From contig CALDOX010000015.1 of assembly GCA_937912005.1 (NCBI GenBank), positions 284,133-348,132 of the forward strand: a stretch of 64,000 bases of DNA, given 5' to 3'. The stretch comes from an uncultured Alphaproteobacteria bacterium. Lineage in GTDB: Bacteria > Pseudomonadota > Alphaproteobacteria > CAAGCB01 > CAG-977. A program made the translations under genes and the position numbers. Below the pieces are notes generated by a model that did no database searches, was not told the DNA's origin, and saw nothing but the letters and a program-made list of their open reading frames with translations. Shown here piece after piece: positions 52,559 to 55,032 of this stretch (positions within the stretch are counted from its first letter, which is position 1; each line of letters starts with the position of its first letter).

Positions 52559-52701
52559 TTTTTCCGAATACCTTTCTTTTTTTGCCAAAAAATTTATTTT
52601 TTGTCAAAACTCTTGTAGTCCGATTTTAATATGATATACTCTTTTTAAGGGAATATAAGCAAGCGTCTATTTTTGCCTTGCAAGGACGAAAGGATACTTT
52701 T

Positions 52702-53376
52702 ATGGAACCGTTGAAACTGGAACAAACCAAACGTTCCGACCGCTTTAGCCATAAAAAGCGTGATAATTCTCAAAATCGCGGCGCGGGTCCGAAGCGCCCG
52801 TCTTCCAAATTTCAGGAACAGCCGCAGCCGAAAGAATTTTTGGGGATTCCCTGCAAAAGAGTTACTTTTAAAGTCCCTCCGAAAGAGGAACGCGAAGCAA
52901 TGCGTTTGGAATTTGAAATGGGCAAACGCGCCGAATTTATTAAGTATCTGGCAGAGACGCAGCAGGAAGCTTTAAAACGTGCCGGCGTTACGGCCAAACA
53001 GCTGGAAGGCATGAAAAAAGGTTATACGCCGCACGGTTTCAATACGCATCACAAACAGCCGATTCATGGCGGCGGCACAAACGATTTTTCGAATCTGATT
53101 TTAATCCCTCGGGAACCATGGCACGATATGATGCACTATCATCTGATCAATCCGCAAACAAAAGGACTGCAGGAAGGAAATGAAAAACAAATTGTCATTC
53201 CCTATCCGGAAACCCCTGTTTTTGAACCGTCTCCTCAATATAAATTCCTGGAGAAATGGACGAAAAAAGGGCGTAAAACCTATGGCAAGAACAAAAACAC
53301 CTCCCTCAGAGATGTTGAAGACGAAGCCAAACGCAGAATTTTCTTGGCTCAGATAAATCGAAACTCGGGACGCTGA
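52702..53376 (+). CDS. colicin-E/pyocin-S-type H-N-H DNase-domain protein, paralogue 2
   Basis: 'KKGYTPHGFNTHHKQPIHGGGTNDFSNLILIPREPWHDMMH'. ATG 52702 has an AAAGGA SD. The track start is TTG 52678. Confidence 0.7.
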   Translation: MEPLKLEQTKRSDRFSHKKRDNSQNRGAGPKRPSSKFQEQPQPKEFLGIPCKRVTFKVPPKEEREAMRLEFEMGKRAEFIKYLAETQQEALKRAGVTAKQLEGMKKGYTPHGFNTHHKQPIHGGGTNDFSNLILIPREPWHDMMHYHLINPQTKGLQEGNEKQIVIPYPETPVFEPSPQYKFLEKWTKKGRKTYGKNKNTSLRDVEDEAKRRIFLAQINRNSGR

Positions 53377-53378
53377 AT

Positions 53379-53969
53379 ATGGCTGATTATATTCAACATA
53401 CGCTGACAAAAGCGGAAAAAGAAGCGCGGCGGGCAGAACGTCTGCGGCAGCAGGAACAGGAAAGACAAGCTAAAATCGCCGCCCTGCCTGACCGGGTTCA
53501 TGGCATTCCTGTTATGGAAGTATCTTACACGGCCGCCGACAAAAAGCATGTCAAAGAAATGCGGCATGAGTTTACGGGAATGCGCAGAGCCTTTTTAAAA
53601 GAATTGGCAGCCACACAAATCGATGCGCTTAAACAAATCGGTTTTTCAGACAATATGATCGCTCTTTTAGCCAAGGGAGAAGCTCCGAACGGATTTAACG
53701 TGCATCACAAAATGCCGTTGGCCGGCGGAGGAAAAAATGAATTTTCCAACTTCATTTTAATAAAAAACGATCCGTATCACACAGATATTCATAAAGTATC
53801 CGATCTTCAGATATCCGCAATGAATCCCGGAGAAACCAAAACCGTTAAAATTCCGATGCCGCAGGGAAGCATTTTTATTCCGCCCGAACAGCATCAAACC
53901 AGAACGCAAACGGCAATCAAATCGCCGGTTTCGACGGTTTTGCTGCAAAAAATGCAAAAAACGCGATAA
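53379..53969 (+). CDS. colicin-E/pyocin-S-type H-N-H DNase-domain protein, paralogue 3
   Basis: 'PNGFNVHHKMPLAGGGKNEFSNFILIKNDPYHTDIH'. Its ATG lies 2 nt after the paralogue 2 stop. Confidence 0.7.
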   Translation: MADYIQHTLTKAEKEARRAERLRQQEQERQAKIAALPDRVHGIPVMEVSYTAADKKHVKEMRHEFTGMRRAFLKELAATQIDALKQIGFSDNMIALLAKGEAPNGFNVHHKMPLAGGGKNEFSNFILIKNDPYHTDIHKVSDLQISAMNPGETKTVKIPMPQGSIFIPPEQHQTRTQTAIKSPVSTVLLQKMQKTR

Positions 53970-54042
53970 AAAAAATAGACAAAATTTTGTTTTTATGGCA
54001 AACTTTTTTTAATGAACGATTCTGTTAAGAAGGGTATCGATT

Positions 54043-54618
54043 ATGGATAAAGAAGATAAGTTTGTTCACGCAAAACGCAAAGGCAAAAAAGAAGGGAAGC
54101 CTAAAAAAACGCAGGAGCAGCTGAACGCCGCCCAAGGCAAATTTCCTTTTACGGAAATTAACGGCTTTAAATTAAAGGAAGTCGAATGGACCGTTCCCGA
54201 TCAGAAAACCCGTAAAAGACGCCGCAGCGCATTCAACAAAGTGCGCGAAGAATTTCTGCGTCACATCGGCGCGACAATGGAACCGGCTTTGCGCGACATG
54301 GGACTGACGGACAAACAAATCGAACAAGTCAAAAGAGGATCGGCGCCGAACGGCTATAACGTACATCACAAACTGCCCATTCACGGCGGCGGGCAAAATG
54401 TGTTTTCCAATCTGATCCTGATGCCGATCAAACCGCATGACGAATTACATCACATTGTTATGGATCCGCAGGTTGCGCAAATGCAAACCGGTGATTCTAA
54501 AAAGGTTGTCATTCCTTGGACGGATGACATGGTTTATGTTGATCCCGAACGCAAAAAATCTCAGCCGCAAAAAGCCGTTTTGGCGGCTAAAGTTATGGAA
54601 GCCCGTAGAGGACGATAA
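54043..54618 (+). CDS. colicin-E/pyocin-S-type H-N-H DNase-domain protein, paralogue 4
   Basis: 'PNGYNVHHKLPIHGGGQNVFSNLILMPIKPHDELHH'. It is closest to paralogue 1 (shared 'INGFKLKEVE' and 'DDMV'). Confidence 0.7.
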   Translation: MDKEDKFVHAKRKGKKEGKPKKTQEQLNAAQGKFPFTEINGFKLKEVEWTVPDQKTRKRRRSAFNKVREEFLRHIGATMEPALRDMGLTDKQIEQVKRGSAPNGYNVHHKLPIHGGGQNVFSNLILMPIKPHDELHHIVMDPQVAQMQTGDSKKVVIPWTDDMVYVDPERKKSQPQKAVLAAKVMEARRGR

Positions 54619-54636
54619 GTTTTTTCCTCAAATCAT

Positions 54637-54669
54637 AAAAAGCCTTCAGCTGTGTGAAGGCTTTTTTTC
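54637..54669 (+). terminator. rho-independent terminator after the DNase array
   Basis: AGCCTTCA (54641-54648) / TGAAGGCT (54655-54662) stem followed by a T-run. Confidence 0.8.
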
Positions 54670-54807
54670 TGTTTCAAACAAAAGAATAATCTAAAAAAGT
54701 CTTAAAGACGAAAGTCTGTATAGACAAACGATAGTTTTAGATACAACCTTTTGGTGATTTAAAAAATAAACAAAACTACTTAAAATTGTATATCAGAGGG
54801 CTTGAAA

Positions 54808-55032
54808 ATGAAAGAAAACAAATTATCGAACGGAAATACATATCATTTGACACCGCAGCAGATGAAAGCTTTGAACTATTTAGCACAAGGGCTGCGGAAT
54901 AAAGAGATAGCAAATCGAATGAAACTGTCCGAATCAACGATCAAACAACATGTATCCGGAATTATGTTGCGCTTAGGCGTCAACACCAGAACGGCTGTTG
55001 TCGTCAAAGCGCAGGAACTAGGATTGATCTGA
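54808..55032 (+). CDS. stand-alone LuxR/GerE-type HTH protein
   Basis: 'LTPQQMKALNYLAQGLRNKEIANRMKLSESTIKQHVSGIMLRLGV'. There is no receiver or ligand domain. ATG 54808 follows an AGAGGG SD. Confidence 0.75.
   Translation: MKENKLSNGNTYHLTPQQMKALNYLAQGLRNKEIANRMKLSESTIKQHVSGIMLRLGVNTRTAVVVKAQELGLI

Follow-up and report, generated by a model that had tools for sequence, protein, structure and literature searches.

One SUKH protein for several HNH nucleases: a candidate shared-immunity system in a core-genome locus of gut Alphaproteobacteria

Introduction

How does a bacterium that encodes several apparent DNases of toxin type protect itself when a single candidate immunity gene stands near them? 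The question is raised by a stretch of 64,000 nucleotides from an uncultured member of the Alphaproteobacteria (assembly GCA_937912005.1, contig CALDOX010000015.1, positions 284,133 to 348,132), hereafter the window. Three HNH nuclease-like genes, HNH2, HNH3 and HNH4, form a tandem array there, and a fourth, HNH1, lies 5 kb away beside a gene of the SUKH immunity superfamily. A preliminary description of the window had pointed out that no immunity gene adjoins the array and had named four possible sources of protection, cross-immunity from the SUKH protein among them. It is usually assumed that each toxin has one immunity gene and that the two co-diversify rapidly. The locus shows the opposite: several active-looking DNase paralogues have long been kept together with one ultra-conserved, highly acidic SUKH protein. 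Here we propose, at a probability of roughly one half, that these proteins are active DNase effectors neutralised by one hub SUKH protein and probably exported by a type IV secretion system (T4SS).

Results and discussion

The four HNH proteins appear to share a toxin-type nuclease core

HNH2 (positions 52702-53376, + strand, 224 amino acids (aa)), a free-standing HNH (colicin/pyocin-like) DNase-domain protein, is followed by its paralogues HNH3 (53379-53969, +, 196 aa) and HNH4 (54043-54618, +, 191 aa), the latter being the best conserved of the four HNH proteins. The fourth paralogue, HNH1 (47595-48188, - strand, 197 aa as called, with an open reading frame (ORF) reaching to 48206), is encoded directly upstream of the SUKH/YrhA-family gene (47084-47524, -, 146 aa) whose product is the proposed shared immunity protein for all four nucleases. 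The tandem, same-strand arrangement reported earlier was confirmed, as were the translational coupling of HNH2 and HNH3 (TGA at 53374-53376, then ATG at 53379 after 2 nt), the start of HNH4 after 73 nt (ATG 54043 located in the sequence) and the intrinsic terminator closing the array, whose 12-bp stem, 6-nt loop and T-run were placed at 54637-54666 (+). The HNH2 start required correction: while the ORF reaches further upstream to TTG 52678, ATG 52702 is most likely used, being preceded by the ribosome-binding-site-like sequence AAAGGA and so called in a public assembly with identical sequence, which lists HNH2, HNH3 and HNH4 at 224, 196 and 191 aa.

The four proteins are 31-46% identical in pairwise alignments over their whole length, and a hidden Markov model of the family recovered exactly HNH1-4 from the window (E-values of 1e-65 to 1e-89, with no other sequence at E<1), which bears out the earlier view that they are true paralogues. 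Each contains the motif N[VT]HHK.P..GGG.N.F.N…P.H…H, present as NTHHKQPIHGGGTNDFSNL…HDMMH in HNH2, NVHHKMPLAGGGKNEFSNF…HTDIH in HNH3 and NVHHKLPIHGGGQNVFSNL…HDELHH in HNH4. The HH (or DH) dyad, which comprises a metal ligand and the general-base histidine, occurs as N[VT]HH[KM] in HNH1-4 and all orthologues, and the segment GGxNxFxN…P.H…H, with conserved asparagines and two C-terminal metal-binding histidines, is invariant or nearly so. The HH/N/N/H/H catalytic motif was intact in all 20-25 orthologues per paralogue. Because the motif is retained in every orthologue and the genes are under purifying selection, HNH1-4 look like catalytically competent DNases.

An AlphaFold2 model computed from a 27-sequence alignment had a predicted local distance difference test (pLDDT) score of 87, rising above 90 over residues 21-170, and contained a beta-beta-alpha core at residues 105-144 (strands 105-109 and 124-128, then helix 129-144, pLDDT>90). 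The HNH core as a whole spans residues ~40-170; a short basic region precedes it at the N-terminus, and a basic tail of ~20 residues follows it at the C-terminus. The "conserved C-terminal extension" of the preliminary description has to be divided accordingly: up to about residue 170 it belongs to the folded toxin domain, while the last ~20 residues are a separate, lineage-specific tail. Its suggested role in auto-inhibition was not upheld, as the segment is modelled at pLDDT>90 within the domain and also occurs in bona fide toxin domains located at protein C-termini. The family profile matched the HNH motif of Cas8-HNH chains (2.5e-5) and the pyocin AP41 DNase (0.008). Foldseek comparison with the PDB returned only weak HNH-core matches, to Cas8-HNH, the Gme nicking HNH and the Rhs2-CT toxin, with no colicin or pyocin DNase among the 50 matches listed. 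PDB sequence searches likewise gave motif-level matches only, so no candidate close structural homologue was retained and the scaffold modelled around the HNH core appears to be without a close solved relative.

A profile search of 1.84 billion representative sequences identified 1198 relatives. In many of them profile positions ~39-170 lie at the extreme C-terminus of proteins of 300-700 aa, whose N-terminal parts contain LXG, Pre-toxin TG (PT-TG), Tox-PAAR-like, RHS or Mu-portal-type modules according to Pfam; profile E-values for LXG, PAAR and RHS proteins went down to ~1e-28. At four loci (L061-L064) a SUKH gene directly follows the homologous domain, two of them being Bacillus and Metabacillus loci (L063 and L064) in which it is directly downstream of the toxin. 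Because relatives carry the domain in C-terminal toxin fusions and have SUKH genes downstream, sequence comparison identifies the core of HNH1-4 as a nuclease domain that genuinely belongs to polymorphic toxins and is usually partnered by SUKH immunity.

HNH1-4 are thus like the polymorphic toxins with SUKH immunity (PMC3113570, PMC3482391), for example the Bacillus LXG and PT-TG proteins, in their homologous nuclease domain and in the SUKH-superfamily gene found directly downstream, here in the case of HNH1. Unlike those toxins they are free-standing, with neither an N-terminal trafficking module nor a multidomain architecture; the toxin-to-immunity ratio is 4:1, with no immunity gene after each toxin; stable orthologues occupy a syntenic core locus in place of rapid diversification and cassette exchange; and no gene of the locus evolves more slowly than that for the immunity protein. 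The DNases of colicins E2, E7, E8 and E9 and of pyocins S2 and AP41 have the same H-N-H motif type (HHxxPxxxGGxxxxxxN…PxxH…H) and the same combination of a basic nuclease with an acidic inhibitor, a likeness echoed by a weak Col-Pyo_DNase Pfam match and by the match to pyocin AP41. Unlike nuclease bacteriocins, however, HNH1-4 measure 191-224 aa and have no receptor-binding or translocation domains, the locus has no Im-type four-helix immunity protein and no lysis gene, and the scores are sub-threshold; judged by sequence, the resemblance is at the motif level only.

A syntenic core locus with one candidate immunity gene

A scan of one genome per GTDB species yielded 64 loci (numbered from L001), nearly all of them in uncultured gut or rumen Alphaproteobacteria, including 'Acetobacter sp. 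CAG:977'. In 24 species, represented by species-level gut alphaproteobacterial metagenome-assembled genomes (MAGs), the gene order queA–SUKH–HNH1–(TM1266-like)–DTW–DUF1150–hsp20–terC–OMP–pheA | HNH2–HNH3–HNH4 (OMP, outer-membrane protein) is shared. The presence/absence polymorphism that the preliminary description had proposed to look for in related genomes was not what emerged: the layout recurs with minor copy-number variation, HNH3 being missing from L009 and L014 and both HNH2 and HNH3 from L011, while L024 has one extra HNH copy.

In a neighbour-joining tree of the core domain (no bootstrap), HNH1, HNH2, HNH3 and HNH4 each formed a monophyletic clade of their own with mirrored species order and topology, and the HNH1 and HNH4 clades were sisters. 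The median identity to the window protein and the median pairwise ratio of nonsynonymous to synonymous substitution rates (dN/dS, NG86) were 62% and 0.29 for HNH1, 51% and 0.38 for HNH2, 63% and 0.21 for HNH3, and 73% and 0.16 for HNH4. Neighbouring housekeeping genes ranged from 43% (OMP) to 81% (hsp20) in identity, with queA at 76% and pheA at 66%, and from 0.08 to 0.25 in dN/dS. Given stable orthologue clades, conserved synteny and dN/dS values of 0.16-0.38, the comparative evidence identifies HNH1-4 as ancient paralogues of a vertically inherited, syntenic core-genome locus and not as exchangeable toxin cassettes. With stable orthologues and no diversifying cassettes, the region no longer fits the earlier picture of a polymorphic-toxin locus in which the ratio of toxins to immunity genes is anomalous.

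The central observation of that description, that no Im-type or SUKH gene follows any of HNH2-4, holds across the 24 species, none of which has an immunity gene in or beside HNH2-4. Among HNH1-4, only HNH1 has an immunity gene directly downstream. The 24 orthologous loci share no small ORF after HNH4, and their flanks are unrelated: synteny stops right after HNH4 and the genes beyond it differ in nearly every species, on which ground a conserved downstream gene was rejected as a source of immunity. The LuxR solo gene that follows the array was also rejected as a part of the system because it is confined to this strain.

Could an immunity ORF have been overlooked within or overlapping the array, or could the copies be inert or decaying and need no immunity? 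Several antisense and alternative-frame ORFs of 58-102 aa do exist. Ten such ORFs were checked in the 24 loci for a frame open over at least 80% of its length, and eight of them (58-102 aa) were scanned against Pfam. The eight gave no Pfam match, and none was open in more than 13/24 loci, the longest (102 aa) in 4/24. A 41-aa antisense ORF (54445-54570), which was outside the Pfam scan and is half the length of any Im-type protein, was open in 17/24. Apart from this short frame, the other ORFs of the array have poorly conserved frames and can be regarded as shadows, as had been assumed. Intergenic gaps of 2 and 73 nt, open frames that are not conserved and the lack of Pfam matches led us to reject a hidden immunity ORF. 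Nor are inert copies indicated, judging from the intact catalytic residues and dN/dS values of 0.16-0.38. We therefore regard either version of this explanation as extremely unlikely.

Two further observations were made during the scan. At another conserved chromosomal site, related genomes (L029-L059) encode a pair of longer HNH paralogues (250-340 aa) with no SUKH gene nearby; beside the pair are two DHH-like genes, one for a small lipoprotein and one that is pyridoxal-kinase-like. In addition, two contigs labelled 'Limosilactobacillus gorillae' (CAVCSV…; L018 and L049) hold the full alphaproteobacterial syntenic locus, and the label almost certainly reflects a mistake in binning or labelling of the public record.

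The single SUKH protein is a candidate hub of immunity

Exactly one SUKH gene is present in the window. Its product matched the YrhA family of NCBIfam (NF038335) at 102.5 bits versus a cut-off of 55 (1.8e-29), while its Pfam SUKH-1 score was borderline (24.7 bits versus a threshold of 25.4). It is the most conserved protein of the locus, with a median identity of 85% and a dN/dS of 0.08, and at L001 it is 99% identical versus 87% for queA. L011 and L014 keep a full-length SUKH protein (94-96% identical) at loci where tblastn finds no remnant of HNH1. With 33 Asp and Glu among its 146 residues it has a net charge of -24 and an isoelectric point (pI) of 4.05, and HNH1-4 have pI values of 9.7-10. 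Its relatives are less acidic, the net charge being -5 to -9 in virD4-linked proteins and -14 to -16 in those of Bacillus. In the outgroup locus L057 the genes are contiguous in the order pheA(-) | HNH, HNH, SUKH, queA, such that SUKH closes the HNH array.

SUKH is an established immunity family for HNH toxins (PMC3113570, PMC3482391), and the number of toxin types that an immunity family can cover ranges from one to 27 (PMC3482391). Experiments have demonstrated that nucleases can be countered by non-cognate immunity (PMC12483513), and acidic, DNA-mimicking immunity surfaces have been described (preprint 10.64898/2026.09.22.753552). The conservation, retention and acidity of the SUKH protein would be explained if one constrained acidic inhibitor must fit four to six basic paralogues. 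Of the four protection sources proposed previously, cross-immunity from the SUKH gene 5 kb away is accordingly the best supported by comparison, given that this protein is the most conserved of the locus, is kept without HNH1, adjoins the HNH genes in L057 and follows the homologous domain in Bacillus. Taken together, these patterns support a model in which the single SUKH protein (47084-47524) most probably shields HNH1-4; for HNH2-4, binding is inferred from the comparative patterns, the adjacency to HNH1, the retention without HNH1 and the complementarity of charge. The puzzle of many HNH paralogues with one SUKH protein is real, but comparative evidence appears to resolve it largely.

In the proposed mechanism, the producer would be protected by one generalist immunity protein, the hyper-acidic SUKH, which would bind all HNH paralogues and probably cover their basic DNA-binding face. 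The present separation of SUKH and array would result from rearrangement of an ancestral pheA | HNH–HNH–SUKH–queA cluster, as one inversion with breakpoints between two HNH genes would yield the observed layout. One immunity protein acting on several related nucleases would parallel RdnI and its PD-(D/E)XK effectors (PMC12483513), and the acidic inhibitor surface would parallel Rehh/RehhI (preprint 10.64898/2026.09.22.753552); whereas those cases were shown experimentally, the one made here is drawn only from patterns of conservation, charge and gene loss. If the SUKH protein is a generalist inhibitor, the locus would be a natural model for broad-specificity nuclease immunity.

A C-terminal tail and virD4-linked relatives point to possible export

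HNH1-4 have no signal peptide or known trafficking domain, and inspection of the basic N-termini found no strict fit to classical nuclear localization signal patterns. Almost all family members do, however, end in a tail that consists of an Ala/Leu/Val-rich stretch, then K/R/Q residues, then G/S/T/R-Arg-COOH. Examples are …FLAQINRNSGR in HNH2, …LLQKMQKTR in HNH3 and …AAKVMEARRGR in HNH4, as well as …AQLMQKQAGR. The terminal arginine hardly ever changes, whereas the linker before it differs in both sequence and length. In related genomes the same tail, placed after a K-rich linker, is found on unrelated enzymes that lack a signal peptide and are encoded near family members: a Zn-dependent phospholipase C, several DUF6782 putative metallopeptidases (a family on which the literature search found no papers), RNase J-like metallo-beta-lactamase proteins and adenosine deaminases with a C-terminal extension. 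Tail-bearing non-HNH proteins are located at L009:13804-15075, L022:9781-10914, L036:2868-5657, L044:11097-12374, L047:3453-4547, L047:9159-10829 and L061:1026-2699. When a position-specific scoring matrix of the tail was applied, 8/909 non-family C-termini scored above the 99.9th percentile of internal windows, with ~0.9 expected. A tail common to the HNH family and other hydrolases suggests a shared C-terminal targeting signal.

At L061 and L062 an HNH-family gene and a SUKH-like gene stand directly after the gene for a protein of 755-771 aa, which can be assigned as a VirD4-type coupling protein because it has T4SS-DNA_transf, TraG-D_C and TrwB_AAD_bind matches. VirD4 homologues, 62-83% identical, are widespread in gut alphaproteobacterial assemblies, and at every virD4 place examined, all in related gut Alphaproteobacteria (L061, L062, L065-L083 and L086-L094), virD4 is followed by an HNH-like gene (204-375 aa) and then by a SUKH-like gene (143-149 aa). 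Paralogous membrane proteins of ~350 aa are encoded upstream of this trio; in the L065-type locus two VirB6/TrbL-like genes are also found upstream, and the flanks are housekeeping genes. The N-terminal region of the virD4-adjacent HNH-like proteins is rich in Pro and Gln, their C-terminus has the same kind of tail (…Q[RK]S..GR), and they are basal to all free-standing paralogues in the tree. By gene content and order, the trio gives the impression that a toxin–immunity pair has been put to new use next to a chromosomal T4SS. In JBFXJJ010000003.1 it lies ~15-20 kb from a pheA | HNH–HNH–SUKH–queA cluster, and MAG CAKQWA has the trio and five other family loci, so that VirD4 is present in both related genomes where this was checkable (JBFXJJ and CAKQWA).

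A further feature of MAG JBFXJJ, probably unrelated, is an encapsulin (Linocin_M18) gene with an EncFtn-like cargo gene (L083:1995-3150), ~7 kb upstream of virD4.

The tail and the virD4 linkage provide a lead that points to VirD4-dependent export. The HNH nucleases would be exported effectors, and the tail would be the element recognised by the VirD4-type coupling protein of a chromosomal T4SS. This part of the model is held with lower confidence than the shared immunity, and on the sequence evidence T4SS export is best regarded as a tentative proposal that falls short of an even chance. The compartmentalised export considered in the preliminary description gains new support from the shared tail and the virD4-adjacent relatives. 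The targets would be other species or host cells and not kin, which could explain why a toxin and its immunity protein have been kept without diversification.

The closest functional analogy would be the bacteria-killing T4SS of the Xanthomonadales, whose hydrolase effectors, nucleases included, have a C-terminal VirD4-binding domain (PMC8740702, PMC11253643). Its X-Tfe/X-Tfi effector–immunity pairs in Xanthomonas and Stenotrophomonas, in which the nuclease TfdA is among the effectors and immunity guards against cis-intoxication (PMC11253643, PMC8740702, PMC10933484), likewise combine hydrolases of several classes with a C-terminal recognition element, here a predicted one, and place an effector–immunity pair beside virD4, here in relatives and judged from genes alone. 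C-terminal signals recognised by VirD4 take the form of the XVIPCD in the X-T4SS and of an Arg-rich tail in VirB/D4 substrates. In contrast to the ~120-aa XVIPCD, the tail described here is an Arg-terminated segment of ~20-25 aa; the hosts are gut Alphaproteobacteria, and most candidate effectors have no adjacent immunity gene. The free-standing HNH2-4, without an associated immunity gene, also resemble effectors used against distant targets, which share polymorphic-toxin domains, can stand alone, use type III secretion systems or T4SSs and are marked by the absence of immunity genes (PMC3482391). The locus differs from these in retaining a single conserved SUKH gene, and some immunity would still be needed because a DNase is also toxic to its own producer.

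Several observations weigh against the proposal that HNH1-4 are active, SUKH-neutralised effectors of a T4SS. The Pfam HNH scores (PF01844, 13.5-18.9 bits) fall below the gathering threshold of 21.4 bits, Col-Pyo_DNase (PF21431) matched two of the four proteins at 14.5-17.3 bits (E 0.0055-0.042), below its gathering score of 27 bits, and Foldseek found no close structural match in the PDB beyond the HNH core. The extreme conservation of the SUKH protein could stem from another essential role. With respect to export, the window and the syntenic loci contain no T4SS genes. No secretion system of any kind was found in the window, where the large ORFs at 27-42 kb encode LigA, RecN-like, BamD, aldehyde dehydrogenase, a TPR-methyltransferase protein and similar products. 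When VirD4, TrbL and the membrane-protein paralogues were searched by phmmer against all family loci, matches were obtained in L061 and L062 only, and look-ups of six VirD4 clusters turned up no record from the 24 array-bearing MAGs; the absence of virD4 from the motif-pattern scan is uninformative because most virD4-adjacent homologues differ in the motif. These homologues have lost the general-base histidine (HH to HI, HV or HL) and may be structural partners and not effectors, which weakens the analogy with an effector encoded next to virD4. Known bacteria-killing T4SSs use the XVIPCD signal, which the short tail does not resemble, no XVIPCD-sized domain is present in HNH1-4, and the enrichment statistic for the tail comes from few proteins sampled from HNH neighbourhoods.

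If the T4SS is not involved, the proteins could still be exported, SUKH-protected DNase toxins that leave the cell by another route: as cargo in the Hcp lumen of a type VI secretion system (T6SS), in outer-membrane vesicles, through a type I secretion system (T1SS) or by colicin-like lysis release. The lack of T4SS genes in the window and syntenic loci would agree with this, and in other phyla the same toxin domain is fused to PAAR-like/RHS modules of the T6SS and LXG modules of the type VII secretion system. The size of the HNH proteins, ~22 kDa, suits Hcp cargo. However, no T6SS, T1SS or lysis gene was found near any of the ~60 family loci examined, virD4 is the only secretion gene found adjoining a family member, and the K/R/Q-rich tail is unlike T1SS signals. 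We consider a route of this kind unlikely.

A different possibility is that the nucleases are not weapons but cytoplasmic enzymes with a domesticated role, such as regulated DNA degradation, nucleotide salvage or DNA processing tied to a DNA-transporting T4SS, and that SUKH is their regulator. Core-genome synteny, housekeeping-like rates, the lack of polymorphism and a position among the housekeeping genes queA, pheA, terC and hsp20 are all consistent with this, and the altered catalytic site of the virD4-linked member suggests a non-toxin role for at least that branch. Yet a housekeeping nuclease would not usually be present as four to six redundant paralogues per genome, every one of the closest outside relatives is a toxin module with SUKH immunity, and the presence of the tail on phospholipase C and metallopeptidases as well suggests that these proteins are exported alike. 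A domesticated role is, in our judgement, distinctly unlikely.

Returning to the model of nucleases neutralised by SUKH and exported by a T4SS, the observations can be extended to a wider reading that would take in all parts at once: a scattered, Rickettsiales-like chromosomal T4SS with its own short signal and effector repertoire, a virD4-linked pair acting as adaptor, SUKH as immunity protein and chaperone, and non-kin targets. The signal would be an amphipathic stretch followed by a basic segment and ending in G/S/T-R-COOH, and the repertoire would comprise four to six HNH DNases, phospholipase C, DUF6782 metallopeptidases, an RNase J-like nuclease and an adenosine deaminase. Originally toxin and immunity protein, the catalytically dead HNH and the SUKH-like protein encoded right after virD4 would now serve as a coupling-protein adaptor, while the queA-linked SUKH would be both universal immunity protein and secretion chaperone for all DNase paralogues. 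The targets, other species or host cells, would imply a genotoxin-like role. As a joint claim this is doubtful. If true, it would offer a case in which the conversion of a toxin–immunity pair into parts of a secretion machine can be tested. Should the tail and the virD4 linkage reflect real export, a prevalent but uncultured lineage of gut bacteria from humans and animals, whose interactions are apparently little known, would gain a defined effector repertoire and secretion signal; a full-text literature search joining RF32, Alphaproteobacteria and type IV secretion returned no paper.

Promoter-like elements and the strain-specific flank

The 73-nt spacer between HNH3 and HNH4 contains AAATAGACAAAA (53973-53984, +), a promoter-like element with a -35-type TAGACA and an A-tract. 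A second exact copy lies upstream of HNH1 (48263-48274, -), making 2 exact copies in the whole 64 kb, and a one-mismatch copy is found upstream of the LuxR gene (54764-54775, +); three or more matches occurred in 8/100 shuffles. Other species retain the element ahead of their HNH1 and HNH4 orthologues, and it may be a shared promoter or operator. In the pheA-HNH2 intergenic region, TTGTCAAAA (52601-52609, +) was recognised by inspection as a candidate -35 element and is kept upstream of HNH2 orthologues, such that promoter-like elements upstream of HNH1, HNH2 and HNH4 are all conserved across species, an observation that bears on the tight transcriptional silencing suggested in the preliminary description as a source of protection.

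Beyond HNH4, where synteny ends, the region 54700-63977 is strain-specific. The next gene is the 74-aa solo LuxR-type helix-turn-helix protein described earlier (GerE, 54809-55032, Pfam 9.8e-16), called from ATG 54809 in the public assembly with the same sequence. It is followed by a Fic/DOC protein (55088-56014) and a 67-aa HNH protein (56084-56287); the latter is likely a gene fragment, its match to a type II restriction enzyme model being confined to the final 67 residues of that model. Next come a protein whose N-terminal domain is of the T7 tail-fibre type (56687-57595) and a low-GC block (33-39%), the first gene of which encodes a glycosyltransferase (57619-59922).

This accessory island, with its Fic/DOC gene, restriction-enzyme fragment and phage tail-fibre gene, raises the possibility that HNH1–SUKH is a toxin–antitoxin or abortive-infection-type defence module, in which HNH2-4 would be extra toxins freed when phage attack degrades SUKH; the pattern of a small toxin with a small acidic inhibitor would also be in keeping with it. 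The island is strain-specific, however, whereas the HNH genes are conserved in 24 species, and defence genes are usually patchy and not syntenic core genes. PADLOC gave no match for HNH1-4 or SUKH (E<=0.01), and anti-phage defence was rejected as a candidate function on this result; we consider the defence module very unlikely.

Elsewhere in the window, a TM1266-like putative regulator occurs in two copies, at 48277-48522 (-; PF21699) and at 22145-22387 (-; by phmmer only, 2.7e-14). The first lies between HNH1 and the DTW gene and is missing from some syntenic genomes. A 1183-aa ORF (36008-39559, +) in a region of strong AT skew has a weak, sub-threshold sulfatase match.

A tblastn search of a plasmid collection with HNH4 gave only distant matches, to LXG proteins and an 'HNH endonuclease' (<=35% identical). 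The plasmid 'HNH endonuclease' (23.7% identical, E~5e-5) is carried by several hundred large enterobacterial plasmids, from Enterobacter, Salmonella, Klebsiella and others, and 434 of the 447 plasmid records matching HNH4 are typed as conjugative.

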